Virus record (IMG/VR): IMGVR_UViG_3300023179_000044
Coordinates: 1 to 64,000 of that record
Source: a virus
Length of the DNA stretch: 64,000 nucleotides
Strand: one strand, 5' to 3'
In this document: piece after piece, positions 37,418 through 64,000 of the stretch
Layout of the letters: every line of letters starts with the position of its first letter
Numbering within the stretch: position 1 is the first letter of the stretch
Program-made: the position numbers and the translations under genes
The notes under the pieces: model-generated
Seen by the model: the letters and a program-made list of their open reading frames with translations, nothing else
Database searches by the model: none
What the model was told of the DNA's origin: nothing

Positions 37418-37513
37418 TGGACCTCCTAAGGTCAGTTTGGTTAGTGAATGTTTTACCATTCATGGTGAACAATCAAGGCCGAGGGACTCTGCAAAAGTTG
37501 CGAGGCGCTCTAC

Positions 37514-37530
37514 CTATTAGTAATTTTACC
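37514..37530 (-). promoter_or_regulatory. putative late promoter GGTAAAATTACTAATAG (capsid)
   Basis: 16/17 identical to 51105-51121. Contains a TAAAAT -10 element. Confidence 0.65.
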
Positions 37531-43269: not shown

Positions 43270-46200
43270 CTACAATCCTGTAATTTTGCTTAGATAACTT
43301 CTAAGACTATTTAATTCTTTTTCAGTATACTTTGAAGCTTCTTCACCTTCAAGTTCATTTTGCAAGAAGTTGATTAACTGGCTATATTCAGATCTACTAA
43401 GAGTTCCATCACTACCAGAGAATTTATCAATTATAGAAGAAATAACTCCTTCATTATCTGATCCTATAGATCCTTTTTGCATGGCTTTCTGCGCAGATCC
43501 GGATGGCTTAGGAGTAGTAACTGAACTATTAGCTTTAGCCACTGCACCAGATCTATCTGCTAGTGCAAATAATGTACCGAAAGCAAGATTTCTTACATCG
43601 TTATCTACTCCATCAGACTTAGCTCTACCAAATACTTGAACTATATTATCTACAGGATTGCCTTTAGAATCAGTATAAGTATCAGTATTTGGATCGTAAT
43701 TTACATCAATTACTTTCTTTTTACCATCTTTATCTTTGATTTTTGCCTTTAGGCCTTTTCCTCTAGAAGCAATCCCAGGTAGAGATAAAGCATCTTCAAA
43801 AGCCATAGTCATAACTTCGCTATGAGATGATTCTGGAGTAATTCCTCTTTCATAGACCTTAGACATATATGGACTAGCAAGACCCTTAATCGCTAATGCT
43901 TTTTCTTTGTCGCTATACCCTGGACCAAGAAGCTCAGCTAGTCTCAAGACATTTGGAAGCATTTCTTCAGGTGTTCCTGCATTTTGCACGCCTTTATCAT
44001 AAATAAATGCATGCTGCAGTTGAGGCATATTAGGAATTAATTCTGCAATAACGTGAGTATTCTCGTGAATTGCAGTAGCAGTAGTTCCGCCATCACCTTT
44101 CTGAGACATCCCTGGTCTATTAGATAAGTGAATATGGAATCCCTTTATATCTTCACTAACAAAAGCCCTAGGTACGCCAGACATAATGAAAATGCTTTTA
44201 TTTTCATTTCTAGCCCTACTAATTAATCCACGAATCATAGATGATGGAAGTAGGCTTATTGCTTCTTCAAAACCAACCTTTGATAAGAATGTATCTTCAG
44301 GTCTTACGGGTAGATTTTTCTCTTCACTAAATAGCAAACCATTAAATTCACTCAATGACACGTTATCAAGTTCGATGCCTTCGTCATTCATGGTATCTAT
44401 GTAGCCTTGTCTTTGGGCAGCACCTATAGTTTGAATAGCACGTCTTTCAGAAACCTGAGCATCTTTATGATTTTTTGCAGCAAGCTTAAATTTACTTTGA
44501 AGTGTTTTATATGCAGCAGTTGCTGCTCTATCATTCATAACATCATAAGCATGGAAATGAATTGCATTAGAGCCAAGAACGCCAGTTTTGACAGAAGTAG
44601 CAAGATATGGAAGTCCAGCTGCATCTAAACGCTTCTTTAGTTCATCTCTATCAACTTCTGGACCATTAGGACCATTTTTAATTAATCCTTCGGCATTCAT
44701 TTTATCAAAAATAGCTTTTTGATTAGCATTAGATATCGTTGCTAGATTAGACGGAACTGACTTAAATTTAGACATTCCTTTAGCTCTTTCAAGATCTAAT
44801 GCATTTTTTGCAGAAACTTTTTCATTTTCTTTTTCAACTCTATTTGACTCTAAATCATTAAAGAAAGTATCCAAATCTGGAGCATTAGAAGTTGATATGC
44901 CCTGGGACTGAAGATTTTCTAAAGTTCTTTGATCAATCTTTTTTCTAAGTTCATCACCAATAGCCAATACTTCATCTTTAGCTTTTCTAGCCTCTTCGGT
45001 AGGTTTAACCGCTGTATCAGAACTATCCTTAATTGGAGTCCTTTGAGTAGTATCAATAGATAATGTTTTAGCAGTTTTTCCATCGCTACCCATTCCAATT
45101 CCAATATCAGCTGCTCTCTTTCCAAGTGTAGTTAGAGCAGATGGTTCTGGAGCCTTGAGAGGAGAAGAAGAAATTATTTCATCAGTATCATTAAAGGTTT
45201 TAGAATCACCATTGTCAAAAGTAAACTTAGTTACAGCCGACCCAGTCTTTTTATTTGTTCCAGACTTCTTAGATATAACTCTACCAAAACGACCCCCATT
45301 TGGATCGTACAGGGTATCTCCTACAGAAATATCAGATGCTTTGGTTGAAGTACCTTTTTGCGGGCTACCAATTATTTGATCTTCATACTTATTATAATCA
45401 ATATAAGAAAAATCAATTGCATCAGTATTAAACTTCATGATAGGAACAATGTCACCATTATCATCATAAGCTTTTTTATCAAAAATCAAACCTTTATCAA
45501 AATCAACAACATCTCCATTTTTAAGAGCACGCTCAACGTCAAGTTGATCATTTCTTACAGTTTTTCTTCCCTTTTCTAGAGGTGTATTATCAGGAACTCT
45601 TATGAGTTTTTCAGTTGTAATAACTCTAGGTTGCTCATCTGGGTCATCAGAGAACCTAACACTTACATAGTTAGAGTAAGCAAAGTTTCCTGCAGCATCA
45701 TGTTCAACTCTAAGTTTATGATCAATTACACCTACGGCATCGCCATTAGGATCGATATTATTTGGCCATCTCACTTTCATTCCAACCTGAGCAATTTCTC
45801 CACTCTTAAGCCTGTGAGGAGCTAATGCGATTCCAGCATCATCAAGAACTTTATTTTCTATAAAGTCAACAATTTCTTTAAACTGATCAGTAAACTCGCG
45901 CTCATCAAGATATGCAAATTTTTGTCTTAGAGTTTCAAGGATGACTCTTTTAGCTACATCTCTTGCTTCCTGAGTATCAGGAAGATCAGCAACATATGAT
46001 ACTAAAGCATTAACTGCAGCTAATTTATCTCCTTTATCAAGAGCATCCCAGAATGATGGAATACCTTTTCTCATTTGGTTATAGAGCTGGCTCGTATCTT
46101 TTGCTTTTGATTTATTTAATCTTTGCTCTCTACCCCCAAGAATTAGCAATGCTTCTTCGGTAGGAGTTCTTAAAGAAAGGCTTGTATCATCTGAAGACGG

Positions 46201-49200
46201 GTCTCTTAGGATATTTTCAAAACTTCCTGTCCGCTGAGCCTTAAATCCTCCACGAATTCCTCCGTAGTATCTTTCATTACGCATCTGATCCTTAGGTGTT
46301 TTTCCTTTAGGATTTGCTTTCCAGTCACGAAGGAAGTATTTTTCTAATAGAGCCTGAGGGCCACTAACACCTAGCAAACTTGTAAGACTCTTATGAGGAG
46401 CATAGTGATAGAAAGTTTCTGACATACCAGTGTTTAAATCAGTATAAGTTGCTACAACTCTAAAGTTATCATCCTGATTCTTTACAATACGAAGTTCAAA
46501 AAATGTTTTTTTACCAGCAAAATCTTTAGATGTTTTAGGCTCAGTAAAACTTAGTTCCCTGGCCCAAACTATGCTGCCATCTTGTTTAATAGTTGCATTA
46601 GGATTAATTGCTAACAATGCAGCAATAATATCTTCTCCTTTAGCAGTAGACACGCTAGCAAGGGCAGTTTTAGGAATACCGGATACATCAATTCCTTCTA
46701 CACGCTTTTTAGGATCGTCTTGTCTAGCTGGGTTATCAACCCAGAACCTAGACGGACCTCCAGGATGAGGAGTTGGAGTTATTACAGTAGAAGCATTCTT
46801 TGGCTTAGCGAATCTAGAAGAATTCTTAGATTGAATACTTCTTCCATTATTAAGTTTTTCTAATGCTGCAATTAAAGAAGAAACTCCACCCTTATTAGAC
46901 TGAACATCAGCTATAAAGTTAGGATCTTTAAATAGTTCTTCAATTACAGTATCGCCATCTGCACCTGAATCAATTAATTTAGCAATTTTTCCAGTAGGGT
47001 CATATTTAGATAGCTTAGACTTTGAAAGTTCTCTGTTATTTCTAACCCCGGCACTACGCTGTTGTCCAAAATTCTTAGCTAATTCGTCAATACTGTCATA
47101 TTTTTTAGATGGAACTGAAGAATCACTTCTATTACGAAGAAGTGCACTACCGTCTTTATTAACAGTTACTTCCCAGCGCACGCCATCAATTAACTTACTG
47201 TATTGCTGTCTACCTTTAGACCCAATTTGTTGCCAACCATCAAGGAAGTTTTTAGGCGGGGTAGTTGGACCAGAAACTCTTCCCTGAGAGATAAATGTTT
47301 CTTGATCATTTTGTTCAATAAATGGCTTTCCATTTCTTCCGGTAGATCCAAGAGACGAAGAAAGTTTTTCTGGTTTAGATCCTCCATCTTCTTCATTTCC
47401 AGGACCTCGAACTTCTTCGGCCATTTTATCTCTATAATCCCAGCCATCCATTCCGTAGTCCGCCGGGCGGTTATATTTAGTATTAAACTTCTCGAGGCCA
47501 TCTCGTCCAGAGTAATTCATTGCCCACTCAAGGCTACCTAAAAATAAACCTTTTTTAGCTCTAGTTGTAGAAACATAATGAATTCTTGTTTCTTCTTCAT
47601 CTAATGCTCTTTTAGCTATTTTTTTATCTTCAGAATTTGGATCAGCAAAATCATTACCGAGACTAACGTAATCCCACTCTAGACCTTTACCCCTATGCGC
47701 AGTACTAAGAGTTACATCAGCAATTACATCATTTGCTTCTAGTCTATTTGGAATGTAAGCAGCTATTGCATCTAATTCAGACTGACGATCATCATCATCA
47801 CGAGTTGAAAACTCCCAGTGTTGTTCTGTACCATTATATTTCCAGCCTCGATTTTTTAGGTAGTCTTTAAGCGGAGACCCATTTACATACTCTTTATATG
47901 TAGCTTCACCACTTAATGTTAGAACTCCAAAATCATCAACTTCATAATTTAATCCTCTACCAGCTTTAGATATCCATACGGTTCCAGATGACCCAATTGA
48001 AGCATCCAAATTAGAATCTACAGCACCTCCAGTATCAGACTTATCTACTAATAGATCCTCTATAACTTCACCAAGACGATCGTATCTTGTTTTACCTGTA
48101 TTATCTGCATATGTAGAAAATGTATACCAACGGCCAACTACAGATTTAGGATCTCTTTCTGCTCTTTTTTGAAACTCTTTTAAGGTTGTAATTCCTCTAA
48201 AATCAGAATCTTTTATGGGCTCTCCATTAGGCATTTGAGGGGTTTTAGTTCTATCTTTAAAATCTGCCCTAAGCCACTGTATATAGTAGTAATTATTAGT
48301 TAATTCTTTATAAAGCTGGCTTAAAGCCGCAACTTTTCTATTATCATCAATAAAACCAACAATAGCTTCGGCAGCAGCTAAATTAGTCCTAGTTAAGTGA
48401 GCTCTCTGTGGTCCAAATGGTAGTTCATCAATATCCCCTACAATTCCAGGGAAGTTAGAATCATCAACATTAGGATTTCCTACAAGACGCTTATTGTCTC
48501 CAAGTATATTTAGAAAAGCATTACCTGGTCCAGTTAAAGAATCAGGCATTCTATAGCTTGTAGTTAAGTTTACAACTGCACCAGCCGAGTTCTTTGCATC
48601 ATTTAATGCGTTAACTGCACCTCTCCAGGTAAAGATATTTTGATTTGTATCTCCAACGTGAGCGAGCTGAATATTTCCTTTATTATTTTTTAGAATATCA
48701 ACAACAGTCTCGTTTGTGTCCTGAGCTTCATCAATAATTACAAGTTTTGCTGGTAGTCTCTTCGTTCCAACTTTAATTTTAGATAAATCCGGATTACTAA
48801 GTTGCCAAAGTTTTAGCACATGGTCCTGGCTAATAGCTATTCTTCTATTACCAACAAATTTTTTCTTGTCTTTATCCCAGTAGCCAAGTTTAGGATTATC
48901 TTGACTAATGTCATCCCAGTATTTATTTGCCCAGCCAAGCCATTTATCAAAATCAATCTTGTACTTTTGACCGTCTCCTTCCATAAAATCTTCTGTAGGC
49001 ATGTCAAAAGCATCAGAAAATGCTTTAATTACGTTATCTTTTGATATCTCTCTACCAGGAGAATTACAGAAATTAGAAATGATTTTATCTACAAGAAAAG
49101 CTGCATCTTCACTATCAATATTTCTTCCAGGACCAGGAGTATCATCAGTACCTAAATGAAGAGCCAGATATTCTGGAGTATAGACAAGTTTAGAAAACTT

Positions 49201-51051
49201 TGGTGCTCTATTAATTTTTGTTGCAGCTTTTTGCTGAATAGTTAAAGATTTTCTAGCTAATTTGTGAGTTGTCATCGCATCTGAGTTATCACGTGGAAGC
49301 CTAGCTTTTGCATCAGCAGCATTTTTATTACCAAAAGTAAGTACTAATACACCATCATCTGGGCGTAGCCGACCCATGGCCCTAGCAATAGCTACCGATG
49401 TGGCAGTCTTTCCACAACCAGCTAATGCATCCATAACAGTATCTTGCTTAGCTAAAACAATCGCAGCAATTGCTCTTTTTTGTTCAGAGCTTGGTACAAA
49501 TCCTCCCGTATCTTGAGTAAAGTCCTGACCTGCCGCCAAAGCATCAAGTTCTTCGTTGCTCATCTTAGCTACTTCTTCAATAGCCTGTTTAACTTCTTCT
49601 ACAGTAGGTGGAGTTTCACCAGTAAGTTCTGGATCCTTCATTGGATCGCTTGTTGTTTCACTTGGAGGAATATTTAAATTCAAATCTCCGTCTTTTGCTG
49701 GAGGAGTGAATCCACCATCCCCCTCTGAAGTTTCTGGAGTCTGGATAGACGGAGTTTCTTCTTCTCCATCTTTAAAATCAACATCATCATCAGGAATATC
49801 TTCATATGAAGGACCGTAAGATCTTCCGCCTTTTCTACCCTTTGCTTTTTCAACAACTTCATCTACAGTTGGCGCGTTGCCATCCATCGCATCATCAATT
49901 GCTTCTTTAATGATGTCATCAGATGCTGGCTGAGATTCTTTATCTAATTTTGATGGTTCGTATTTTTCTGCCTCTGTAGTGTCAATAATTTCAGGTTCAG
50001 TAGTATCTGGAAGCGTGCCCGGCTCTTCATCGGTCAGTAGATTTTCAAAATATTCTTTATTTGGAATATCTTCTGTTGGAGACTCGGATCCATCTTTAAG
50101 TCCATCCATTACTTTAGAATTTAATAGTCTTCTAGCAGCTCTAAGTCTTTCAATTCTTTGTGTATCAGGATTTTCTTCAGCTTTTAAAGACTCAATTTTA
50201 TCTTTAAGAGCTTCATCTAATTTAAATATAGGAAACTTTGACTCAAGTTCTGATCTTAGTCGAGCAGCTTCCCCTTTTTTATTTTTTTCACCAGAAATTT
50301 TTCTATAGTTTGAATGTTCCTTACCAAAGTACTTCCAAGCATTACGATTAAAACTCTTTCGACCTGCCTCCCTAACAACATCCTCCACGCTCTGCTGTGG
50401 CTTCATTAGTGGTTCTTCTGGCTCTACTTGCTTAGATGGAACAACTTCTTCCGATGGCATGCTTTCGACTATGCGAGCAAGCTCTTCTTTTGACATCTTT
50501 CCTTCAGCACCAGGCTCAAGCTGAGCAAGAGGAGAGTTAGCTTTTTGCTCTTCAATTATTTGCTTTTCTTCATCTGTAGGAGTAGCATCAGCAAGTTCTA
50601 AGTCCTGAGGAGTAATTTCATCAATTAAAGTATTCTCATAGTCAAGAAAATCGTCCTGTGACCACTCTCTAGAAATAATAGGATTTCCCCTACTATCGAG
50701 TTTTTGACCTGGAGTAATGCCTTGACGCTTAAGAGCTTCTTCAGGAATAATACCTTCAATGGTTTCCATGGCATTTGTAGGAACGTGATAAACACCATCT
50801 CTAAAGCCTTTATCAGAAAAACCTTGAACTAAAATTCTAGCAAAACCCTTAATTTTATTAGAAGCTCCGATATACTTACCTCTAATAGGGATTGGTGGCA
50901 AACCATGCTTCAGCCTAGCTAGCATTAATTGTAGATGGCCCATTTCGGCCCACTGGCCGTGGCGATCACGAAGCTGGACCATCCAGAAACCCTTGTTAGC
51001 TCCTAAGCCAACTGCAATAATTACTTCTGGGTCTTTATTTTCTAATGACAT
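43270..51051 (-). CDS. 2,593-aa polyvalent protein: UvrD-like SF1 helicase + SH3-like modules + HExxH metallopeptidase
   Basis: ALAGCGKT, IIDEAQD, VGDTNQNIFTWRGA, LTTSYR, TRTN, STAHRGKGLEW, EETRIHYVSTTRAK; then AIHENTH...SEVMTMAFE. RBS AAGGA. Confidence 0.88.
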   Translation of the reverse strand: MSLENKDPEVIIAVGLGANKGFWMVQLRDRHGQWAEMGHLQLMLARLKHGLPPIPIRGKYIGASNKIKGFARILVQGFSDKGFRDGVYHVPTNAMETIEGIIPEEALKRQGITPGQKLDSRGNPIISREWSQDDFLDYENTLIDEITPQDLELADATPTDEEKQIIEEQKANSPLAQLEPGAEGKMSKEELARIVESMPSEEVVPSKQVEPEEPLMKPQQSVEDVVREAGRKSFNRNAWKYFGKEHSNYRKISGEKNKKGEAARLRSELESKFPIFKLDEALKDKIESLKAEENPDTQRIERLRAARRLLNSKVMDGLKDGSESPTEDIPNKEYFENLLTDEEPGTLPDTTEPEIIDTTEAEKYEPSKLDKESQPASDDIIKEAIDDAMDGNAPTVDEVVEKAKGRKGGRSYGPSYEDIPDDDVDFKDGEEETPSIQTPETSEGDGGFTPPAKDGDLNLNIPPSETTSDPMKDPELTGETPPTVEEVKQAIEEVAKMSNEELDALAAGQDFTQDTGGFVPSSEQKRAIAAIVLAKQDTVMDALAGCGKTATSVAIARAMGRLRPDDGVLVLTFGNKNAADAKARLPRDNSDAMTTHKLARKSLTIQQKAATKINRAPKFSKLVYTPEYLALHLGTDDTPGPGRNIDSEDAAFLVDKIISNFCNSPGREISKDNVIKAFSDAFDMPTEDFMEGDGQKYKIDFDKWLGWANKYWDDISQDNPKLGYWDKDKKKFVGNRRIAISQDHVLKLWQLSNPDLSKIKVGTKRLPAKLVIIDEAQDTNETVVDILKNNKGNIQLAHVGDTNQNIFTWRGAVNALNDAKNSAGAVVNLTTSYRMPDSLTGPGNAFLNILGDNKRLVGNPNVDDSNFPGIVGDIDELPFGPQRAHLTRTNLAAAEAIVGFIDDNRKVAALSQLYKELTNNYYYIQWLRADFKDRTKTPQMPNGEPIKDSDFRGITTLKEFQKRAERDPKSVVGRWYTFSTYADNTGKTRYDRLGEVIEDLLVDKSDTGGAVDSNLDASIGSSGTVWISKAGRGLNYEVDDFGVLTLSGEATYKEYVNGSPLKDYLKNRGWKYNGTEQHWEFSTRDDDDRQSELDAIAAYIPNRLEANDVIADVTLSTAHRGKGLEWDYVSLGNDFADPNSEDKKIAKRALDEEETRIHYVSTTRAKKGLFLGSLEWAMNYSGRDGLEKFNTKYNRPADYGMDGWDYRDKMAEEVRGPGNEEDGGSKPEKLSSSLGSTGRNGKPFIEQNDQETFISQGRVSGPTTPPKNFLDGWQQIGSKGRQQYSKLIDGVRWEVTVNKDGSALLRNRSDSSVPSKKYDSIDELAKNFGQQRSAGVRNNRELSKSKLSKYDPTGKIAKLIDSGADGDTVIEELFKDPNFIADVQSNKGGVSSLIAALEKLNNGRSIQSKNSSRFAKPKNASTVITPTPHPGGPSRFWVDNPARQDDPKKRVEGIDVSGIPKTALASVSTAKGEDIIAALLAINPNATIKQDGSIVWARELSFTEPKTSKDFAGKKTFFELRIVKNQDDNFRVVATYTDLNTGMSETFYHYAPHKSLTSLLGVSGPQALLEKYFLRDWKANPKGKTPKDQMRNERYYGGIRGGFKAQRTGSFENILRDPSSDDTSLSLRTPTEEALLILGGREQRLNKSKAKDTSQLYNQMRKGIPSFWDALDKGDKLAAVNALVSYVADLPDTQEARDVAKRVILETLRQKFAYLDEREFTDQFKEIVDFIENKVLDDAGIALAPHRLKSGEIAQVGMKVRWPNNIDPNGDAVGVIDHKLRVEHDAAGNFAYSNYVSVRFSDDPDEQPRVITTEKLIRVPDNTPLEKGRKTVRNDQLDVERALKNGDVVDFDKGLIFDKKAYDDNGDIVPIMKFNTDAIDFSYIDYNKYEDQIIGSPQKGTSTKASDISVGDTLYDPNGGRFGRVISKKSGTNKKTGSAVTKFTFDNGDSKTFNDTDEIISSSPLKAPEPSALTTLGKRAADIGIGMGSDGKTAKTLSIDTTQRTPIKDSSDTAVKPTEEARKAKDEVLAIGDELRKKIDQRTLENLQSQGISTSNAPDLDTFFNDLESNRVEKENEKVSAKNALDLERAKGMSKFKSVPSNLATISNANQKAIFDKMNAEGLIKNGPNGPEVDRDELKKRLDAAGLPYLATSVKTGVLGSNAIHFHAYDVMNDRAATAAYKTLQSKFKLAAKNHKDAQVSERRAIQTIGAAQRQGYIDTMNDEGIELDNVSLSEFNGLLFSEEKNLPVRPEDTFLSKVGFEEAISLLPSSMIRGLISRARNENKSIFIMSGVPRAFVSEDIKGFHIHLSNRPGMSQKGDGGTTATAIHENTHVIAELIPNMPQLQHAFIYDKGVQNAGTPEEMLPNVLRLAELLGPGYSDKEKALAIKGLASPYMSKVYERGITPESSHSEVMTMAFEDALSLPGIASRGKGLKAKIKDKDGKKKVIDVNYDPNTDTYTDSKGNPVDNIVQVFGRAKSDGVDNDVRNLAFGTLFALADRSGAVAKANSSVTTPKPSGSAQKAMQKGSIGSDNEGVISSIIDKFSGSDGTLSRSEYSQLINFLQNELEGEEASKYTEKELNSLRSYLSKITGL

Positions 51052-51104: not shown

Positions 51105-51121
51105 CTACTAGTAATTTTACC
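51105..51121 (-). promoter_or_regulatory. putative late promoter GGTAAAATTACTAGTAG (giant helicase gene)
   Basis: Near-identical to the motif upstream of the capsid gene. Confidence 0.65.
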
Positions 51122-53435: not shown

Positions 53436-53648
53436 TTACCATCTATATCCGTCAGCTAAACTTTTATAGAAATTATCCTCTAATTCTATGTATTTATCTC
53501 CCGTGTAGTCTTCTACTTCAGAAGCAGCACCATTAAGAAGAACATTTTTATAAATAGGCATTTTAGTTTCAGTTATCCACAAATCGGGTGTAACTTCTCC
53601 TAGTAGTAGACCGGACTCATGTTTTTTAGTCATTTTTATTTTAATCAA
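53436..53648 (-). CDS. small acidic protein, candidate immunity protein
   Basis: ATGA overlap with the stop codon of the giant gene. Confidence 0.65.
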   Translation of the reverse strand: MIKIKMTKKHESGLLLGEVTPDLWITETKMPIYKNVLLNGAASEVEDYTGDKYIELEDNFYKSLADGYRW

Positions 53649-56600
53649 AATAGCCCTCCTCCAAAGGATCTAGGTTTAGAATATGGTTTTTTACTAGAGA
53701 ACTCCCATATTATACCCTTACTAGTCAACAAGTCAATCATTTCAACTGAAGGCATTTCATAAAATACAACTTTTTCAATGTCATCTAGTGTCACACCGCC
53801 ATGAATCTGGGCCTCAATTGAACCAAATTTAGCAAAATTTTCACTTTCAAAGAAGTTTTTCCCGGTAGCTTCTCTATAAATAGCAGCCATCTGAGTCAAA
53901 TAACTCAATTTAAATTCTGGATCAGTCAATGGAGTAGTTTCATCAAAGTTATTCAAAGAGTCTCTATCAGAAATGGTGGTTCTTTTCTTTACTTCTGGCT
54001 TCAGCACTACCTGGGCAGGCTCGGATCCTCCATAAATTTTTAAAGCATCTTCTGGTGGTGGTAGTGTAGCTGAAGCAAGCGATCCATATACTGGACGCCC
54101 TTCCAGTGGAGAGTCTCCCTCATAGCCAAAAGCCATGCTTTCATATAAAACACGTAAAGCACGATACTCCTCATTAGAGACTCCAGCCATAGAGCGTTTA
54201 GTCTCGTGTACTGTCTTTATTCGTCCTTCTTCTAGAACTTTTTCTAGAGCACGAGATGGCATAATAACTGATACAGCACCAGATTCAGAAAATTCTTTTA
54301 GATCTTTATTTGTAATTTCTACAGATTGTTCTGGATCAACCGTAACATCATAAACCTGACTATTTACTTCATCATCCGCATAGTCTGGAGTTGTTATGGC
54401 AAACTGATCTAGGTCTTCTTTACTTATTCTTGGACGTTGTCTAGTTAAACCTCGTTCTAAAAGTGCATAAGCTATAGTTGAACCATCAAAATTATTAGTT
54501 TTAGATGTCAATGCTTCCATTATGTCTCTGTAAAGTGGATTACTATGCGCTGCTATTAAAGCTTCAGTATATTTTTGATCGTTATCCATTTTGTCTTTAT
54601 AAAGATTTTTTATTCTTAACAATTCTTTTTCTTCATCTGTGTCGGGGCTATCTTTTTTAAATTGTATAGCTGACCTAATATATTCGTAAGTTTCTCTACC
54701 TTCTGGAGTTCTGTCAGTGTCCCAGGGGAGAGACAAATCCCTACCAAGTTCAGTTGCAATTTCTTTATAAGCTTTGTCGCTAGCATTGTGTTTTGCATCA
54801 TCAAGATTAGAAATAACCGAGCTTAGTTCTTGCCTAGCGTCGTCCGATAGTCGTGTTCCAGTTATATCTGTTCTATTTTTATTTTCTTGGTTCGGGTTTT
54901 TATTTTTATTTTTATATTCACTAGAAAACATGATAGGAATAGATATTCCAGCTTTATCTAACTCTTTTTGTATTCTTGCTTTTTCGGCTTCCATATCTGC
55001 TTTAGAACTATTTCTATCATCGAGAATAATAGTTTCTATTTCATCACTAGAAATTCCACCGTGAATCTGAGCTTCGGTGTAGCTGGGATGGTAAGCACCA
55101 TTTCCGTAATCAAGGTTATTTTCAACTTGCGGTAAATAGCCAATAATACCTGCAGCATATAAAGAATCAGGATCAATTTTTTCTCCAAGTGGGATAGCTT
55201 GGAAAGCCCTATCAAACGAATCGTTCATCGTGGCTGTAGATCTATCTCTGACTGATTTTTTAAGAATAAGCTTTACATCTCCGTAGCCAAAAGTTGGACT
55301 AGAGTCTATATCATTGAATCGATTACTAGTTCCAAATAGTCTTTTTGGAGCATCATCAGTTGGATAAACTAAATAGCCATAAATAGGTCTATTTTTTGGA
55401 TCTAAATCAATTGGAAGACCCATTAAAGCACGTTCGACCACCGTTCTTTTAGAATTGTCAAACAATCCATTAGAAAATTGAGTCTCAAACTGAGTTTTAA
55501 TTCTTTTATCTTCTAAAATTTTAGCAAAAGTTTTTTCATCTACCGCGACTACAATTTCGGCGTTATCTAATTTATCAGCAATTAAACTTAAATTACTGTC
55601 TATGAGATCAATACCCGAAACAATCTTAGGAAGATTATTTTCAGATACTTCATTTTTCATCTCTTTATACATCTCTAAAAGTAGCATGGTATTTTCATGC
55701 ATTGCATAATTATTAAGTTGCTCTTTTATTGCATCAAATTCAATAGGAGAAAGTTTATCTTTATATATTTTATTAAATTCTTTTATATCAAAATATATAA
55801 ATCTATCTTTATTTCTTTTAATCCAATCTTGAGCAAAATCTATGGCTTCTTGTGAATGACCATATGAAGTACGGTCAAGATAATCAACAGTCAAAACAGT
55901 GGACATTACTTGACCCGTAATATCTTCAGATTTATTTGGTATAGGGTCCCCATCAGAGTCTGGCTCAGTCAATTTCTTTATAAACTTTTTATCTGGATCT
56001 ATGTATTCTTTAATAGAATCCATTGCAGAATAGTTTTTAAGTAAAGATATAATTTCTTCTTGAGTAGATGGAATAGCTACTTTTGGTTTTTGTTGTTCTT
56101 CAAGTTCATCAAGGCTTGGCCTTTCGCGAGTGACCTGAACTACTTCTACAGGAATAGAAATTCCATAATTTTTCATAAGATCTTCAATATTTTTAGCAAC
56201 CTCTAGAAGAGCCTCTTTATCATTATCACTGTAAGCAGGTATAACAAATTTTTCAATATCATCTAAAGAAACACCACCATGAATCTGAGCCTCAAGATAG
56301 TTTGATCCAAAATCTCCAAGAGTACTTGGCGGTATTTCTAACACTCCAGATTTTAAAACAGAGTCTCTGTCAACTTTAGTCAAATCTGATGCCACGAACT
56401 CGGCTGAAAGACTATCCTTAGCTGTAAATCTTGTTCTATTTTTTATTGATGATTTAAGTACTACCCTAACATTTCCGTATTGATATAAATTAGGACTTTC
56501 TAGTCTATAGTCCGTTGAGAATGGATTTAGATTACGATACAATTCTGGAGTACTCTCTAGTCCTAGATATCCATAAATAGGTCTAAGACTGTCATCAATG

Positions 56601-59600
56601 TCTATAGGAACACCGTTTACACTGAATTCTGAAATTGCTCTTTTAATTGGATCATAAAGGCCCCTACTTTTAGCAGTTTCAAATTGAGATTTTATTCTTC
56701 CATCTTTAAATAAATTTTCAATAAACTTTTCATCGATAGCAATAGTAACAGAAGCATTTTTTATAGCATTAGATAAATCTTCAGCTGCATCCATCATTTT
56801 TCTTACAGATTTAGCATCTTCACTTTGTCCAGGAAAAGCTTTTTCATATTCAAGAAACATCTCATCAACGGCTTTTTTATTTACATAATCTTGATAAGTT
56901 GTTATTGCATTATAAATAGCATCTTTTTTCCACATAAAGTCATTAGAGGTTCTTTCATCAATACTTTCAGCGGCAGCAAATAGTTTTTCTTTTAATTTTT
57001 TTCTATTTATATATAAAAATTTTTCTTTATTTTTTTCAAACCACTCTTTAGCAAAATCAAATACCGTCTGATCTGGCTCTTTATATCCTTCATTTACTTT
57101 TAATGCTTCATCTCTGTCTTTTAATCTTTTTAATATGCTATATGGGTCATAATAAAATGTTGGATCATCTGGATCACTAGCATCATCATATGCTTTTTTA
57201 TCGGTAAAAATAATTGACTTATCCGACAGATATTTTTCTAGCTCGTCCTCTATGGAATAAGGAATGGCAGAAGCATTAATTTCATTAGAAGTAAAGTCTT
57301 CTTTTTTAACTGGTTCTTTAGGACGTTTATATATTTTGTCATACTCTTCAATATCGGCATTAATTTTGTCTGATAATTCTTTTATAGTATTAGAATCAAT
57401 TTTTTGATCTTCTCTATTAATGAGCTCATCTAAAAGATCCTCGGTAGGCTTGCTAAGTCTAGCATCCTTAAAATATTTGTATACATCATCACGTTCTTGT
57501 GGGCTAGCAAAGGTGACGTCAGTTACACCGTCCGACTTATACTGCTCTTCAGGCCACTCAGGTAAGAATTGCTTTTTTCCATACTTTACCCTGATTCTTA
57601 GGGTTCCGTCAGCATCTTCAAAAACTTCAGAAACTGTAAACTTGGCAGCTATAGGGAGAATAACTTCTTTTTCTCTGTCATAAACAGTTCCGTCTGGCTC
57701 GATAGGGGAGCCTGTAGCACCTTTTTCTGTTTTAATTTCAAAAATAACCGCTGAATTAGTATTTGAATCTTTATTATTTTGATCTAGAATTGCAAAGCCC
57801 TCGGCCACTTCAGGGTCTAGTGAGGTCGAAGTAAAAATATCACTAGATATAACTTCATCCCCTGGCTTTAGCTGCATCAACTGAGCACGTAATTCAGAGT
57901 CTCTTCGGGCTATAGTTCCTCTATAGAGTTTTGTTCCTTCTGGAATTTCTTCAGATTCAGTTAGCTTTTTTAAATTAGAAACTAATTTATTAACACTCTC
58001 GGAAGTATCGGAATCAAACTCTTCACCTTTTATAAAATCTTTTATTAATAAATACTGACCTTTTTGATAACCAGTGATTGCTTCTTTTTCTTCATTTGTT
58101 CTATCTGGAGTTGGAAGTTGATCTATGCCACCCATATCAGGAGATTCGGGCTGGATCTGCCATATAGGATCGCCATCAGGAGGGCCAAAACCAGCTGGAA
58201 TACGAGCAAATGATGTAAAGAATATAGGATTTAATACAGTATTTTCATCGTATCGACCACTCGACTCTGAGATTTTAATTCTAATAGGAGTTGGTCGGCC
58301 ACCGTTATCTCTTGCAGCAATAAGTTTTACTACGTCATCGCTATTATTTAAAGAATATTTTTCAGTATTTGGATTATAAAGTATTTCAATTGGCTCCCTA
58401 AATCCATTATCCTTAATATCTTTAGCGACTTCACTAGCTTTAGTTTTATTTTCCCCAGTGACAAGACCGAAATCAGCATTATCTACTTTAGAAAGCACAT
58501 CTCCTGGACGTACATATCCAACAGTGCCGAGGTTTCCTCCATTAAGAATTCCAAATGGAGCACGTTTTGTTCCTGGTTTTAAATCTATATTTAAGTTAGG
58601 ATCTTCTTGCTTAGAGTACTCGGATGTTTTTTGTCTTACTGCATCTAAGTATGGCTCATTAAGTGTTACTTTTCTGTATAAACCATATTTATGTAAAAGA
58701 CTTTGTAAAGTCTCTAACCCCTCATCAGAGTTACCATATTCATTAATTAAATTAATAGCTTGAGTGTCATATATTTCACCTCTAAGCGAAGCTTTTATAT
58801 CACGAAGTTTTTGTCTACCCCAAATACTTAGATTTGATAATTTTTCTGAAGAATTTTCTTTTTTAACTGTTGTATTTGTATTTTTATATTTTAGTTTGAT
58901 TGTTAAATTACTATTAGAATCCTTTTCTACACCGATAACTTCTAGCTGCGCTCCAATTGGTAAAACCACCTCTTTTTCTAAATCATACATATCCCCACTG
59001 GCTCCCACTACAGCACCAGTTGCACCATTTTCTGTTGTAATATCAAATACTATTCTTTTTGTTGGAGCAACTCTTTGATCACCAAGAGCAGCGAAATCTA
59101 TAGCAACACTTTTATCTCTTGTAGTAGAAGTAAATGTATTATCTGACGATACAATATCGCCAGGTTGTAGTTGGTTAAATTGAGCGTACTTATCACTAGA
59201 AAATACGGCAAAAGTTCCTCTATAGAGTTTTGTTCCTTCTGGAAGCTCTTCTGAAGTAGTTACTTTTTTTAGATGCGGTATTGCTTTATCAAATTTTGCT
59301 TTTTGTTCTTCAGTAATAGTCCCATTAGTTGGATCTGCCATATATTTTGCTAAACGATAATATGAAGGACTTTGATAAAGTTCTATACTTTCATTTTCTT
59401 CATCAGTTCTAGGTGGTATTGGTAAATCAAATTCGTCATTAGCTGTTTCTGGAGTTTTCTCTTCTGATTCTGGATATTTATTTAAAATAAACTCGCGACG
59501 AGCTTTTAGTTTTTCTTTAAGTTCTTTATTATCAGCTGGGTCAGAAATAAACTTATCAACAAGTTCATCTATTTTTTCTGGAGTAATAGCGCGAAGCTTT

Positions 59601-62600
59601 TCGACACTTTTTCTTTCAGCCTCGGGACTCATATTAGAAAAAAGTTGACCAGTAGTATTTTTCTTGTCTTTAAAAGTCTCTAATTCTCCTACTTCATTAC
59701 CAAAAGCCGATCCCTTACGCTCGCCTCTGGCACGATATAGAAGAGAACCTCCGGAGTCTATACGAACTGGATTTCCATCTTTGTCATAACTTAAATTGTC
59801 GTATCCAGTACCAACAACGTCCCAGTTGCCTAGCCATGCATCTATTGCAAACCCGTCGAATGCCGGATCGTTGGGGTCCACCCCATTATTTATTCTTTCT
59901 GCTACTGAAGTTAAAGGAGTGGTTTTCCAATCAGTGTAAGTTACTTGTTTACTACGCATTAGGCCTTTTTTAACTTCTAATGCGTCGATTCCGGCTTCTT
60001 TATATAATGCAGAAGCGAGTGCTTCATTATCTCCACGGTTTTTATCTTGGATCTTTACATAGAAAATATTTCCAGTATTTGGATCTTGATATTTTCCACC
60101 AGGATTAGAACCAAGAGGTCCAGAAATTTGTTTAAAGTTAGTAAAATCTAACTCGGGGGTTTCAGATTTTTTAAGCTCTTCACTTAACTCGGGTTTTAAC
60201 TTATTTTCTGCAGATTCTATAATAGGTTCTATTTTTTCTACATTTTTAAGACGAGAGTCATTTGGATCGTGGCCACGGCTGACAAAGAAAGGTTTACCTA
60301 TTAGCTCTTGCATAGAAGAGAGGACCTTAAGCGATCTGTCTACTTCATCTCCAGCTTCTGGATTATCAAAGTATTTTTCAGCTCCTCCTCCAATATAATG
60401 AAGTGATTCACCCTTTAAACGCCATTTTTGATTACCATTTTTATCTTTAAATGATTCAAATAATCTATAAAACCTATCAGAACGAGGTGTCTCCGAGCCC
60501 CAGTCGCGTTCCCATGCACCTTCACCATAAAGTTCGTCATATTTAGCTGGAAGAGCACCTTTTGTTAAACCATTTTCTTCATAAAAAGATGCCCAGTCGC
60601 GGCCATCACCAAAAGGACTGCTATCTAGTGCATAGTAATCGAACTGGCCTAGTGGTTTAAGATGTCTAAATGGGCTTCCTCCACCACTTCTATCAAACTT
60701 CTCATTTGGGCCAACCTTTAGATCCTTTAAATTAAACCACGGAGCATTTTCTGGGTTTGGAATCTCTAAATCACCAAGTCTAGTAACTCTACCTGGAATT
60801 GACGTAACTTCGGGGCTTATTACAGCACCAATTTCATCAGAAATACGGCTAAAACCAAGTAGACCAGTTATTTCATCGGGTCTAGCTTTAATTTCATAAC
60901 GACCAGTATTTTTCCCTTTATCTCCTTTTCCACGTTCAACGTTATAATCAAAAGCCATATACCTATCAAGTGAAGCGTAACCAGCGGCGGCATCGGCTTC
61001 TGTATCTTTATGGTGAATATTATTTCTATAAAAAGAAATAAATCCTCCAGGCTTAACTCCTAAAAATTTTTCAGCATAAAGTTGATTAACTTTTTTGGCT
61101 AAAGGTGAAATATCTTTTGGATCGCTATACTTAGTCATTAAATCTGTGGCAATATGATTACTTAGATAATCCCAGAAAAGATTTTTATCGGTAAGTTCGC
61201 CATATACCGTTTTTAAAAGTTCAGGGTTTTCTTCTTTAATCTGATCGAAGAGACTCCTATACTGAGCACCAACAACTTCTTCAATATCTTTTGGACTTCT
61301 AATTAAAGGGAAGCGACCCTTTTTTCTAAGATTGTTTGCGGCAACAGAACGAATATTCTTAAGCGCGTCATCCCCAGAAACTTCATCAACCAGCTGGTCT
61401 GGAGAGACCGGCTTTATAAAATTAAGCCCTTCGCTTGCTAAGTGTAAACGTATACGTTCATTCTGTTCTTCAGCAATAGCTGCCATTTTTGGAGATAACT
61501 CGGTAACAAATGGTCCTAGTTCTGGTCTTTCGGATTTTTGTTTTACAAGTTTATCTGCAATATCAGCTGGAGATTCTTTTGTAACTTCTGGAGATGGTGG
61601 CGAAGTTTCTTTTGGTGGTTCTCCTTCTGGTGCTTTAGGCGGATTTCCTTTAATACCAACTTCACCTTCTACTTCACGCTTAGGAGCAGGCTTAGGATTA
61701 GCGGAAGTAGCGCCTAGAGTCTGTCTAGGAACACCAACATAGTCATTATATTCATTTGCAAGTTTAAGAACATCCTCATGATCAAGATCAACAACGACAA
61801 CATTTAAATCAATTGGCTTATCCCCCATCTCCTGCGCAGCCAAAGCACCAGCCCAACGGTGGTGACCATCGATGACATACCCGTCACGGCTTACATATAG
61901 AACTGCTTGATCAAACTTTGCTCTACCTTCTGGAGTTAGGAATGCCTGAGCAATACCTCCAACATTTCCCATATCCATTTCTGACTGAACTGGTGTAAGT
62001 TGATCTGGTGTTTTTACATCTCTAGTGTGTTTGATATTAAGTTCATCAAGAATTTTTTCAAATTGTTTTTGATCAGCATCAGTACCAAGCTGCGGCATTA
62101 ATCCACGTTCAGCACCTAAATTGTTATTTGTATAGTTTTCTTTACCATACATCTTCATATTCGTAACATCTACACCATTGGTTCGATATTTACGAGTTAG
62201 ACTTTGCATTTCTTCACTACTTAAAGGACTTCCATTTTTAGATCTTAAAAATGAAAGTAATGAATTAGCTCTTTCCTCATTTAAAAGCCCAGAACTTATA
62301 GCTCTGCGGAGTCTGTTGTATTGCCTCGGCTCTAATTTCTTTAGTTCATCATCTAGTTCTCTAGCTAGTTCAGCTGCTCCTCCTATAGCATTCTCATCTG
62401 CACCAATATACTTTCTATCTGCAGCTGCAATTTTTAGAGCTTCTACCCAAGTATCTTTGTCTACTTCAATAAATCCGCCATCATAAAGAACTTCATACGC
62501 TTCCTGAGGATCAGTTATATCTGTTCTTACCTCTGATGGGTCAATTTCGTTTAGATCCCAGAAACCGCCCTCGTGTCTAGTTGGAGCTGTGGGGCTAGAC

Positions 62601-64000
62601 TCATCTTTAAATTCAGGCTTAAACTCTACTTTTCTTCCATAGCCGTCAAGTACTCGATTATTTTGAATATCACGAATACGTCGATTTGCCTTAGTTTTAT
62701 CAACGTGGGTGAGTTTATCAGCTGGAATTATATTTCCACTAGAGTCAACGTACCACTCTAAAGGCTTACCATCAGTATCGGTTTCACCCTCTACATCAGG
62801 TATCTCATATATAGGCTCTTTTTTCCTCGGCTCCGGAGGTGGTTTTATTGGCGGTGACTCGGATGGGTTTCCTTTGATACCAACTTCACCAGCAACTTCA
62901 CGGTCAGGAACTTCTTTTTCTTCAAATTTTTGGCTAAGGTCAGCCTTTTTAACACCAGCAAAATCAGTAAACTCGTTGGCTAAACGGATACCTTCGCCGT
63001 GATCCATATCAACTACAACAACATTTAGTTCAATGTCTTCCCCAAGCTCGTCCTGAGCAATAAGTGCAGCAGCCCAGCGGTGGTGACCATCAATAACATA
63101 CCCATCTCTAGTTACATAAATGGGGAGTTTTCTAAGTTTTTCTCTTGACTCCGGATTTAAGAAACCCTGAGCAATTCCACCAACCTTACCCATGTCCATT
63201 TCTGACTGAATAGGTGTCAACTGGTCAGGAGTCATCAGTCCATCGGTTATTTTAATACCATTGTCAGCGCAATATTTTCTAAATAACTTAGCGTCGTTGT
63301 CATCTCCAAGTTGTGGCATCAAACCACGAGGAGCACCTAGGTTGTTCTGGGTATAGTTAGTCGAATTACCCATCTGAAGATTTGTAAGGTCGACTCCGAG
63401 ATTACGGAACTTCCTATGTACTTGCCTCATTTCGTCTTTAGTTAAGGCTTCGCCGTTCTTACCGTTAACTAGGTCTATTAGGGCTCTGGCTTTTTCTTCA
63501 TTTAAGTCGGATGGCTTCACAGCACGAAGAATTTTTGCTTTTTGTTTTGTTGGAAGTTTATCTAAAGTATCTAGAACTTCCTGAGCAAGTGCAGATTTTC
63601 CGATCGCATTCTTGTCTTTTTTTATGTACTTGGAATCCGCTGCTGCAATTCTAAAAGCGTTCCAAGCAATTTCTGGAGCAGCTTGACAAACTTCTCCGTC
63701 ATACATAAGCTCATACAGTTCTTGAGCATCTTTTACGTCTCTAATTACATCGGCTTCAGTAATTTCATTTTTATCAATGAAGCCCCTCTCGTGTCTTACT
63801 TCTTGAACTCTAGGATCAGCTGATTCACGATTTTCAAATTTAAATTTTACTTCTCGACCATTTCCGTCAAGAATTCTATTATTTTCTATATCTCGAATAC
63901 GAAGATTTTCTGGAATTCTGCGAGATGGGTCTAGTTTATCTTCACTAATAACCATTCCATCTTCATCAACCCACCAAGCTAGAGATGGATTTTTAGAAAT
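53645..64000 (-). CDS. >3,450-aa polyvalent protein (ParB-like x2-3, ADP-ribosyltransferase x2-3, HipA/PI-kinase-like, DUF3626-like x3); N-terminus outside the window
   Basis: The frame is open to base 64000 (ISKNPSLAWWVDEDG-M...), and the listed Met is internal to a repeat (compare LEWYVDSSGNII). DGHHRW x2; LYRG/STT or STS/EKE x2; GSN..YVK..NE..NWD..N..IDSG; EAQIHGG x3. Confidence 0.9.
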   Translation of the reverse strand: MSKNPSLAWWVDEDGMVISEDKLDPSRRIPENLRIRDIENNRILDGNGREVKFKFENRESADPRVQEVRHERGFIDKNEITEADVIRDVKDAQELYELMYDGEVCQAAPEIAWNAFRIAAADSKYIKKDKNAIGKSALAQEVLDTLDKLPTKQKAKILRAVKPSDLNEEKARALIDLVNGKNGEALTKDEMRQVHRKFRNLGVDLTNLQMGNSTNYTQNNLGAPRGLMPQLGDDNDAKLFRKYCADNGIKITDGLMTPDQLTPIQSEMDMGKVGGIAQGFLNPESREKLRKLPIYVTRDGYVIDGHHRWAAALIAQDELGEDIELNVVVVDMDHGEGIRLANEFTDFAGVKKADLSQKFEEKEVPDREVAGEVGIKGNPSESPPIKPPPEPRKKEPIYEIPDVEGETDTDGKPLEWYVDSSGNIIPADKLTHVDKTKANRRIRDIQNNRVLDGYGRKVEFKPEFKDESSPTAPTRHEGGFWDLNEIDPSEVRTDITDPQEAYEVLYDGGFIEVDKDTWVEALKIAAADRKYIGADENAIGGAAELARELDDELKKLEPRQYNRLRRAISSGLLNEERANSLLSFLRSKNGSPLSSEEMQSLTRKYRTNGVDVTNMKMYGKENYTNNNLGAERGLMPQLGTDADQKQFEKILDELNIKHTRDVKTPDQLTPVQSEMDMGNVGGIAQAFLTPEGRAKFDQAVLYVSRDGYVIDGHHRWAGALAAQEMGDKPIDLNVVVVDLDHEDVLKLANEYNDYVGVPRQTLGATSANPKPAPKREVEGEVGIKGNPPKAPEGEPPKETSPPSPEVTKESPADIADKLVKQKSERPELGPFVTELSPKMAAIAEEQNERIRLHLASEGLNFIKPVSPDQLVDEVSGDDALKNIRSVAANNLRKKGRFPLIRSPKDIEEVVGAQYRSLFDQIKEENPELLKTVYGELTDKNLFWDYLSNHIATDLMTKYSDPKDISPLAKKVNQLYAEKFLGVKPGGFISFYRNNIHHKDTEADAAAGYASLDRYMAFDYNVERGKGDKGKNTGRYEIKARPDEITGLLGFSRISDEIGAVISPEVTSIPGRVTRLGDLEIPNPENAPWFNLKDLKVGPNEKFDRSGGGSPFRHLKPLGQFDYYALDSSPFGDGRDWASFYEENGLTKGALPAKYDELYGEGAWERDWGSETPRSDRFYRLFESFKDKNGNQKWRLKGESLHYIGGGAEKYFDNPEAGDEVDRSLKVLSSMQELIGKPFFVSRGHDPNDSRLKNVEKIEPIIESAENKLKPELSEELKKSETPELDFTNFKQISGPLGSNPGGKYQDPNTGNIFYVKIQDKNRGDNEALASALYKEAGIDALEVKKGLMRSKQVTYTDWKTTPLTSVAERINNGVDPNDPAFDGFAIDAWLGNWDVVGTGYDNLSYDKDGNPVRIDSGGSLLYRARGERKGSAFGNEVGELETFKDKKNTTGQLFSNMSPEAERKSVEKLRAITPEKIDELVDKFISDPADNKELKEKLKARREFILNKYPESEEKTPETANDEFDLPIPPRTDEENESIELYQSPSYYRLAKYMADPTNGTITEEQKAKFDKAIPHLKKVTTSEELPEGTKLYRGTFAVFSSDKYAQFNQLQPGDIVSSDNTFTSTTRDKSVAIDFAALGDQRVAPTKRIVFDITTENGATGAVVGASGDMYDLEKEVVLPIGAQLEVIGVEKDSNSNLTIKLKYKNTNTTVKKENSSEKLSNLSIWGRQKLRDIKASLRGEIYDTQAINLINEYGNSDEGLETLQSLLHKYGLYRKVTLNEPYLDAVRQKTSEYSKQEDPNLNIDLKPGTKRAPFGILNGGNLGTVGYVRPGDVLSKVDNADFGLVTGENKTKASEVAKDIKDNGFREPIEILYNPNTEKYSLNNSDDVVKLIAARDNGGRPTPIRIKISESSGRYDENTVLNPIFFTSFARIPAGFGPPDGDPIWQIQPESPDMGGIDQLPTPDRTNEEKEAITGYQKGQYLLIKDFIKGEEFDSDTSESVNKLVSNLKKLTESEEIPEGTKLYRGTIARRDSELRAQLMQLKPGDEVISSDIFTSTSLDPEVAEGFAILDQNNKDSNTNSAVIFEIKTEKGATGSPIEPDGTVYDREKEVILPIAAKFTVSEVFEDADGTLRIRVKYGKKQFLPEWPEEQYKSDGVTDVTFASPQERDDVYKYFKDARLSKPTEDLLDELINREDQKIDSNTIKELSDKINADIEEYDKIYKRPKEPVKKEDFTSNEINASAIPYSIEDELEKYLSDKSIIFTDKKAYDDASDPDDPTFYYDPYSILKRLKDRDEALKVNEGYKEPDQTVFDFAKEWFEKNKEKFLYINRKKLKEKLFAAAESIDERTSNDFMWKKDAIYNAITTYQDYVNKKAVDEMFLEYEKAFPGQSEDAKSVRKMMDAAEDLSNAIKNASVTIAIDEKFIENLFKDGRIKSQFETAKSRGLYDPIKRAISEFSVNGVPIDIDDSLRPIYGYLGLESTPELYRNLNPFSTDYRLESPNLYQYGNVRVVLKSSIKNRTRFTAKDSLSAEFVASDLTKVDRDSVLKSGVLEIPPSTLGDFGSNYLEAQIHGGVSLDDIEKFVIPAYSDNDKEALLEVAKNIEDLMKNYGISIPVEVVQVTRERPSLDELEEQQKPKVAIPSTQEEIISLLKNYSAMDSIKEYIDPDKKFIKKLTEPDSDGDPIPNKSEDITGQVMSTVLTVDYLDRTSYGHSQEAIDFAQDWIKRNKDRFIYFDIKEFNKIYKDKLSPIEFDAIKEQLNNYAMHENTMLLLEMYKEMKNEVSENNLPKIVSGIDLIDSNLSLIADKLDNAEIVVAVDEKTFAKILEDKRIKTQFETQFSNGLFDNSKRTVVERALMGLPIDLDPKNRPIYGYLVYPTDDAPKRLFGTSNRFNDIDSSPTFGYGDVKLILKKSVRDRSTATMNDSFDRAFQAIPLGEKIDPDSLYAAGIIGYLPQVENNLDYGNGAYHPSYTEAQIHGGISSDEIETIILDDRNSSKADMEAEKARIQKELDKAGISIPIMFSSEYKNKNKNPNQENKNRTDITGTRLSDDARQELSSVISNLDDAKHNASDKAYKEIATELGRDLSLPWDTDRTPEGRETYEYIRSAIQFKKDSPDTDEEKELLRIKNLYKDKMDNDQKYTEALIAAHSNPLYRDIMEALTSKTNNFDGSTIAYALLERGLTRQRPRISKEDLDQFAITTPDYADDEVNSQVYDVTVDPEQSVEITNKDLKEFSESGAVSVIMPSRALEKVLEEGRIKTVHETKRSMAGVSNEEYRALRVLYESMAFGYEGDSPLEGRPVYGSLASATLPPPEDALKIYGGSEPAQVVLKPEVKKRTTISDRDSLNNFDETTPLTDPEFKLSYLTQMAAIYREATGKNFFESENFAKFGSIEAQIHGGVTLDDIEKVVFYEMPSVEMIDLLTSKGIIWEFSSKKPYSKPRSFGGGLF
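57914..59244. repeat. exact 32-nt direct repeat at 57914-57945 and 59213-59244
   Basis: AGTTCCTCTATAGAGTTTTGTTCCTTCTGGAA in both ART domains (encodes PEGTKLYRGT). Confidence 0.9.

Follow-up and report, generated by a model that had tools for sequence, protein, structure and literature searches.

Polyvalent proteins, described by Iyer, Burroughs, Anand, de Souza and Aravind in 2017 (J Bacteriol), are giant chains of unrelated enzyme domains in which a zincin-like MPTase serves as the hub and is the commonest domain, and their phage versions are found among the late virion genes (PMC5512222). UvrD-like helicases occur in a few polyvalent proteins of actinomycete conjugative plasmids and are close to cellular UvrD (PMC5512222). 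Here, we analyzed a 64,000-nucleotide (nt) stretch of viral DNA, positions 1 to 64,000 of the IMG/VR record IMGVR_UViG_3300023179_000044 (the window, to which all positions refer unless stated otherwise), within a genome of 103,878 bp. The subject of this work is a single, uninterrupted reading frame of 2,593 codons on the minus strand of the window (43270-51051), whose product, P0001, carries a UvrD-type helicase, a zincin-like metallopeptidase domain and at least three further domains in one chain, and thus domains of disparate predicted activity, by which polyvalent proteins are recognized. The strategy of loading such proteins as cargo is known. In that paper, UvrD-like helicases are named solely for the actinomycete plasmid proteins, so that the arrangement seen here is new within a known kind: a phage head slot holding a diverged helicase of UvrD type, which is preceded by an unannotated N-terminal header and followed by a lethal-factor-like zincin. 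P0001 resembles the polyvalent proteins also in its late virion gene position, in adjoining a second such protein and in a domain content that varies between relatives. It differs from them in that its helicase lies in a phage head module and scores far below the equivalog cutoffs for Rep, PcrA and UvrD, in the absence of MuF, in a header and a middle (M) domain that have no Pfam or PHROG family, and in a zincin that is not PF18818.

The DarB protein of phage P1 carries methylase and helicase domains, the latter of superfamily 2 (SF2) type, and is not known to have a zincin. The gene of this 250-kDa virion anti-restriction protein adjoins those of the portal and prohead protease, and the protein possesses an N-terminal loading signal and protects incoming DNA (PMC9024508). 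DarB is a close functional precedent for P0001, which is likewise very large, bears a helicase and is encoded near portal and prohead protease genes; loading of P0001 into virions is predicted, and no sequence similarity between the two was seen. The virion RNA polymerase of phage N4 contains an MPTase domain within the region needed for encapsidation (PMC5512222). It is likewise a giant enzyme (3,500 amino acids [aa]) and is packaged and ejected, whereas packaging of P0001 is predicted; the N4 payload is an RNA polymerase instead of a helicase, and there is no sequence relationship. A UvrD-type helicase in one chain with a DNA-associated zinc protease is also a feature of the related giants P0006-P0009, which combine RNase_T, UvrD, ArdC-N and MPTase-PolyVal domains, considered here together with plasmid ArdC (PMC7213743). 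Compared with these, P0001 lacks the ArdC-N single-stranded-DNA-binding domain and an exonuclease, its zincin belongs to a different clade, and, relative to P0006-P0009, approximately 1,000 residues (the M domain and barrels) separate its helicase from its zincin.

A helicase and a zincin in one head-module protein

The original prediction had described an intact UvrD-type helicase fused to a zinc metallopeptidase inside the head gene cluster, and the gene was indeed found between the TerL and portal genes on one side and the protease and capsid genes on the other. The order on the minus strand is TerL, portal, a ferritin-like gene, a 3,612-aa giant, g434, g271, P0001, g120, g133, g643, g1012, capsid and major tail protein; all genes neighboring P0001 lie on the same strand, and the base composition across the P0001 gene is unremarkable, with no anomaly. 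TerL was identified by Pfam Terminase_6N/6C and the capsid and protease by PHROG matches, with g1012 showing protease and portal PHROG matches and a weak S78 match. The 582-aa 'portal' had no family match and is named by its position and length. A separate replication module with SF3 and SNF2 helicases, also noted in the prediction, lies away from the head cluster at 2-16 kb and comprises PrimPol-D5 SF3 (2258-4849), SNF2 (12261-14057) and PolA (14595-16412), together with PD-(D/E)XK and AAA_24. The parts of P0001 and the features associated with it are as follows.

43270..51051, minus strand: whole open reading frame (ORF) of P0001, 2,593 aa, in the order N-header, linker, helicase, small modules, M domain, SH3-like module, zincin and tail
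51105..51121, minus strand: 17-nt element GGTAAAATTACTAGTAG, 54 nt upstream of the P0001 ATG
50458..51045, minus strand: N-terminal header, residues 3-198, a small beta domain followed by helices, from alignment and hidden Markov model matches
49660..50457, minus strand: linker, residues 199-464, acidic and proline-rich, with a gappy alignment and non-conserved columns
47437..49659, minus strand: superfamily 1 (SF1) UvrD-type helicase core, residues 465-1205, ATPase motifs all intact
46900..47250, minus strand: small conserved modules, residues 1268-1384, including a helical module of about 43 aa (1340-1382)
45475..46698, minus strand: M domain, residues 1452-1859, with an alpha/beta part, a helical part and a Tudor/SH3-like barrel
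45601-45789, minus strand: the putative Tudor/SH3-like barrel at the end of M, residues 1755-1817, recognized via the modeled relative L019
45157..45369, minus strand: second putative small beta-barrel (SH3-like), residues 1895-1965, weak sequence resemblance
43507..44478, minus strand: zincin-like metallopeptidase domain, residues 2192-2515, with HENTH at 44053-44067, E2412 at 43816-43818 and a beta subdomain at its end
43273..43506, minus strand: C-terminal helical tail, residues 2516-2593, kept in the closest homologues alone
37997-38023 (g1012 residues 852-860), 50950-50976 (P0001) and residue 46 of the neighboring giant: Q-x-R-D-x-x-G-x-[WFY] sites
53645..64000, extending beyond the window edge, minus strand: neighboring giant, a polyvalent protein whose complete length in the genome is 3,612 aa, with the header at residues 36-135 (E value of 4e-17)

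The canonical SF1A motifs, predicted at ~47550-49500, were all present and conserved, their residues mapping to ~47550-49420. They comprise Walker A (AGCGKT, residues 544-549), motif II (DEAQD, 774-778), motif III (GDTNQNI, 800-806), motif IV (marked by R834), motif V (TAHRGKGLEWD, 1117-1127) and motif VI (VSTTRAK, 1160-1166). As these motifs were kept in an alignment of P0001 with four homologues of 27-55% identity, the helicase can be called intact at the motif level. Pfam UvrD-helicase matched residues 523-814 with 56.5 bits (gathering cutoff of 23) and UvrD_C matched residues 1096-1171 with 42 bits (gathering cutoff of 25.6); AAA_19 was also matched, and PHROG 1967, 'DNA helicase', spanned residues 488-1178 (E value of 1e-58). 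The best match to a solved structure was FBH1 (E value of 1.7e-11), and the nearest deposited phage helicases were those of Arthrobacter phages, at 25% identity. Against the NCBIfam equivalogs Rep, PcrA and UvrD, the helicase scored 37-45 bits, below the cutoffs of 911-1,144 bits. By its sequence, the P0001 helicase belongs to the SF1A UvrD type and is not an orthologue of cellular UvrD, PcrA or Rep; it has the SF1A motif set in common with these enzymes and with eukaryotic FBH1, but its 2B region is divergent. The divergent region contains the KDYLKNRGWKYNG segment, which had been put forward as a DUF5710-like insertion. When residues 1030-1095 were scanned alone with Pfam, nothing was matched at an E value of ≤0.05, and the DUF5710 assignment was thus not supported.

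In the C-terminal domain, HENTH was located exactly where it had been predicted, at residues 2329-2333, and the downstream Glu predicted within SEVMT corresponds to the invariant E2412. Residues H2329, E2330, H2333 and E2412 were invariant in ten homologues, from 22% identity upward, with Y2395 and Y2400 also invariant among close homologues. In 59 distant relatives of the domain, the equivalent H, E, H and E were again invariant, together with two Tyr residues and one Arg. Residues 2190-2520 were modeled with AlphaFold from 25 sequences. The model was confident (predicted local distance difference test score of 88.2, predicted template modeling score of 0.84) and showed the textbook zincin core elements H81-93, E97-104, E108-111, E115-121 and H132-149, that is, an N-terminal helix, three strands and an active-site helix; an insert of about 60 residues and a beta subdomain at the end extend this core. 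H2329, E2330 and H2333 sit on model helix 132-149, and E2412 begins the later helix 224-233. The best Foldseek matches of the model were weak, yet they were zincins, namely, lethal factor (E value of 0.02, probability of 0.92) and the PPEP enzymes. VIA-align gave Z scores of 8.0 (173 residues aligned, root mean square deviation [rmsd] of 5.2) and 7.9 (160 aligned, rmsd of 3.8) for the lethal factor catalytic domain, whose alignments over about 160 residues had rmsd values of 3.8-3.9, and of 6.3-7.0 (approximately 148-152 aligned) for PPEP-1/2/3, with PPEP-1 at 7.0 (152 aligned, rmsd of 3.8). The prediction stood to fall if the HExxH motif lay outside a zincin fold; these middling scores, taken together with the motif geometry, place it within one. 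According to the model, the C-domain of P0001 is a zincin fold nearest to lethal factor and PPEP-1 (M34), and protease activity is predicted.

P0001 shares with the lethal factor catalytic domain and PPEP-1/2/3, which are M34 zincins, the HExxH motif, a third ligand in the form of a downstream Glu and a conserved Tyr that precedes this Glu, whereas sequence identity amounts to 5-12%, Z scores to 6-8, a long insert separates the active-site helices, an extra beta subdomain follows at the C terminus, and there is no sign of a toxin role. A PDB sequence search with the C-domain returned nothing. The MPTases of polyvalent proteins fall into many clades, and profile searches link them to lethal factor (PMC5512222); in agreement with this remark of Iyer et al., the P0001 zincin constitutes a clade separate from MPTase-PolyVal.

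The variable slot and its common header

A scan of IMG/VR found 186 relatives, and 19 loci were examined. In these loci, TerL and portal showed 66-87% identity to those of the present genome; for g643, g1012 and the capsid protein, identity was mostly 40-79%. Within this conserved frame of head genes the protein occupying the slot of P0001 ranged from 897 to 3,351 aa. Using four profile-defined modules (header N, residues 3-198; helicase H, 465-1205; middle M, 1452-1859; zincin C, 2192-2515), we found the architectures N-M (35 proteins) and N-H-M-C (15 representatives at 50% identity), as well as N-M-C, N-H, N...C and a split form. The header was common to all proteins occupying the slot and the M domain to nearly all of them, as revealed by alignment and profile searches. 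The N-M proteins had no Pfam domain and were all labeled hypothetical, and seven shorter relatives, scanned with Pfam and PHROG, had no usable match. Because the architectures vary around N and M, the helicase and the zincin represent optional accretions on an N-M core; P0001 is therefore a conserved header and M domain in a hypervariable cargo slot, with the helicase and the zincin as add-ons.

An example of the split form was seen in locus L044 (9869-17472), where the C-domain resides in a separate 1,106-aa ORF right after a 1,440-aa N-M protein. In L003 and L006 the module order is shuffled, with the second SH3-like module directly after the helicase and not after the M domain. The equivalent region of the metagenome-assembled Actinomycetia phage DSL-LC01 (L088; OQ999401.1, 52800-62669) encodes a 3,289-aa 'hypothetical protein', which precedes three coding sequences annotated as capsid maturation protease.

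An exhaustive profile search with the C-domain yielded 138 cluster representatives in proteins of 55-6,004 aa, almost always at the extreme C terminus. Among the 59 distant relatives, the head-associated domains Phage_Mu_F and Phage_min_cap2 were found in six and three proteins, respectively, and others carried ADP-ribosyltransferase (ART), NUDIX, RNase_T or ATLF domains. When IMG/VR was scanned again, this time with the C-domain profile, most of the contigs obtained were those of the first scan. P0001 itself belongs to a 90%-identity cluster of four sequences from two contigs, the longer of 129,995 bp, and the source is an uncultured phage of freshwater actinobacteria with a genome of approximately 100-130 kb. 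In a megablast search of deposited phages, the sole match was a 203-nt stretch of the capsid gene to phage DSL-LC01, and tblastn gave matches to the helicase domain alone, at ≤31% identity. When P0001 was scanned in thirds (N-terminal, middle and C-terminal) with Pfam and PHROG, nothing usable was obtained.

The header, with the motif GANKGFW..Q.RD..GQW.EMG, is common to P0001, the neighboring 3,612-aa giant and related-phage giants of 6,546-7,240 aa, and partial matches of 45-74 residues were obtained in P0006, P0008 and P0009. The neighboring giant carries ParB-like, Alt-like ART and DUF3626 domains. A PDB sequence search with the header profile found nothing; in the model of the relative L019, the header is beta-rich and confident. 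Its most conserved motif, Q-x-R-D-x-x-G-x-[WFY], occurs in three proteins of the genome only, namely, P0001, the giant and g1012. The g1012 copy, QPRDAKGKYRKVLARL, starts at about residue 851 in the C-terminal part of this prohead protease protein and is kept in 13 orthologues.

L019 is a natural N-M protein of 897 aa, which was modeled as a whole and whose domains were confident. Its segment 709-779, homologous to residues 1755-1817 of P0001, matched Tudor/SH3 barrels (Z score of 7.1, rmsd of 2.1, 58 residues aligned). Of two SH3-like modules proposed in P0001, the first (45600-45790) thus gained indirect support through this modeled relative, and the second (~45190-45340) stays putative, with weak sequence resemblance to small barrels alone (z of about 3). 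Another barrel recognized in the L019 model was EF-P-like (Z score of 9.4) and lay outside the domains common to the family. In BFVD, this model matched giants of actinophages labeled 'ADP-ribosyltransferase', but with very small TM scores, and a search of the ESM Atlas gave no usable match for the M domain. The header, the M domain and the P0001 zincin clade are without family annotation, with no Pfam or PHROG family for the first two, although they are present in many lake metagenomes.

A probable role as capsid cargo and the alternatives to it

The 17-nt element upstream of P0001, in the form GGTAAAATTACTA[G/A]TAG, was found in exactly two copies in the 104-kb genome, the second of which (37514-37530) precedes the capsid gene. 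L004, L007 and L071 keep the element ahead of the capsid gene, and the first two of these, which are the closest relatives, also have near-copies ahead of the slot gene. The element is a candidate late promoter or regulatory site. A capsid-like promoter had been proposed for P0001, and the element common to the two genes is the part of that proposal for which we found support. P0001 contains two cysteines among its 2,593 residues (0.08%) versus 0.39% in proteins of the virion module and 1.31% in other proteins (P = 6e-9), and is thus depleted of cysteine as virion proteins are; the replication helicases contain 0.7-1.5%.

We consider that P0001 is probably a polyvalent protein of the phage type defined by Iyer et al. 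(2017), a cargo that enters the capsid and leaves it together with the DNA. Its packaging, ejection and timing of expression, as well as all its enzyme activities and targets, are here predicted from genes. In the scenario that we propose, the header and M core fill a fixed slot, between the portal and the protease and capsid genes, in freshwater actinobacterial phages of about 100-150 kb, and in one lineage this core has gained a UvrD-type SF1 helicase between header and M and a lethal-factor-like zincin at the C terminus. P0001 would be produced late, alongside the capsid protein, and carried by its header into the procapsid, possibly via the QxRDxxGx[W/Y] peptide. Its ejection through the tail, along with the DNA, would then resemble that of DarB in P1, of Alt and the internal proteins in T4 and of the virion RNA polymerase in N4. 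Once inside the new host, the helicase might load on the entering DNA and either help to draw it in or remove bound host proteins, such as restriction enzymes, while the zincin would cut the polyprotein into working pieces or degrade host targets. The general idea that the protein acts on incoming DNA or against host defense, raised in the original prediction, fits the phage polyvalent-protein concept (PMC5512222), and the activity itself is a prediction.

Several observations weigh against this reading. Foldseek and VIA searches with the whole 897-aa L019 model recovered small barrels and generic helical bundles only; since neither the header nor the M core matched a known fold or family, their loading role is deduced from their distribution. 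Pfam and PHROG scans of P0001 revealed no MuF, portal-fusion or other virion-anchoring domain. The QxRDxxG peptide could serve P0001, the giant and the protease protein alike in docking to the capsid, but a match of this length does not suffice to claim homology: the header profile aligned with the prohead protease protein at an E value of 0.096 through the 17-residue motif alone, with an hhalign probability of 3.5%. The structural scores of the zincin are middling (Z of ≤8, Foldseek E value of 0.02). Assignment of this domain to Pfam PF18818, MPTase-PolyVal, was rejected, as there was no Pfam match at an E value of ≤5 and the PF18818 domains of P0006-P0009, when compared with it by hhalign, matched with a probability of 3%. 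Finally, a late head-assembly factor that is not ejected could also be poor in cysteine and share its upstream element with the capsid gene.

Such a factor would be a helper of assembly or packaging whose helicase is held at the procapsid or portal through the header and M and acts in the producing cell, clearing branches or bound proteins from concatemeric DNA before terminase, while the zincin trims P0001 or head proteins during maturation. The position of the gene between TerL/portal and the protease and capsid genes would suit this role, as would the upstream element common with the capsid gene and an intact ATPase core, which needs ATP, absent inside capsids. However, relatives with 74-87% identical terminase and portal have N-M forms of about 900 aa without a helicase, which argues that the helicase is not needed for packaging, and the same header leads ADP-ribosyltransferase, ParB and nuclease proteins that make sense in the next host only. 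We regard the helper role as unlikely. We give the same low weight to the possibility that the header and M form an essential ejection or internal-core protein in the DNA conduit, with the helicase as a genome-pulling motor and not an anti-defense enzyme. The slot has N-M as its universal core, Tudor/SH3-like barrels appear to be part of the M domain, and P0001 is large and cysteine-poor, as ejected proteins are; but most relatives do without the helicase, Pfam scans found no membrane-spanning or peptidoglycan-cutting domain, and UvrD-type helicases travel on single strands, whereas the genome presumably enters as a duplex.

It is more improbable still that the HExxH domain is no protease and that the fusion has no joint function, the domain being a zincin fold that has degenerated or serves for binding only, as in the lethal factor N-terminal domain. 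Its structural Z scores of just 6-8 lie near those of the degenerate N-terminal zincin folds of Certhrax, lethal factor and edema factor (5.5-6.7), but the invariance of H, E, H and the downstream E from 22% identity up and in the 59 distant relatives, along with two Tyr and one Arg, is the pattern that a working active site would show.

Within the capsid-cargo reading, a bolder version can be formulated, which we hold to be doubtful, albeit somewhat less so than the helper and conduit roles. The header, the swappable payload and the terminal lethal-factor-like zincin would then form a plug-and-play capsid-loading cassette of a large family of freshwater actinobacterial phages, with QxRDxxGx[W/Y] as the docking signal of both the cargo and the prohead protease, and the ejected helicase and protease would travel on the entering DNA, stripping and degrading restriction and defense proteins. 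Such a DNA-clearing machine would be the phage counterpart of the UvrD-ArdC combination. If packaged, P0001 would represent a virion-delivered SF1 helicase and add a DNA motor to the injected ADP-ribosyltransferases, RNA polymerase, methylases and nucleases. The family constitutes a natural experiment in which the head genes are near-constant and one slot swaps payloads behind a common header. This variation makes the rules of capsid targeting and the anti-defense functions testable, and the header might provide a handle for protein delivery like the P1 DarB signal.

Neighboring genes of the head module

The 271-aa product of g271 (51148-51963) has one short module in common with each of the giants: its residues 192-234 match the helical module of P0001 at 1340-1382 (E value of 2.5e-7), and its residues 5-39 match residues 2300-2338 of the in-window ORF of the neighboring giant (E value of 7e-4). 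Just past the window edge, between the portal gene and the first giant, lies a gene for a ferritin/Dps-like protein of 151 aa (G000 64487-64942, L001:487-942; Pfam Ferritin, E value of 5e-17). It was found with 43-71% identity in the 17 related loci covering the region and is an unusual fixed member of the head module.

A 93-residue module, PHROG 6439, is duplicated with 63% identity at 40152-40430 and 40578-40856, the two copies forming residues 49-141 at the N terminus of g1012 and residues 541-633 at the C terminus of g643. The capsid protein (35378-37459, 693 aa) consists of a helical, conserved N terminus (approximately residues 1-100), an acidic low-complexity stretch of about 130 residues and an HK97-like part, and its N terminus and acidic stretch look like a built-in scaffold or delta region.

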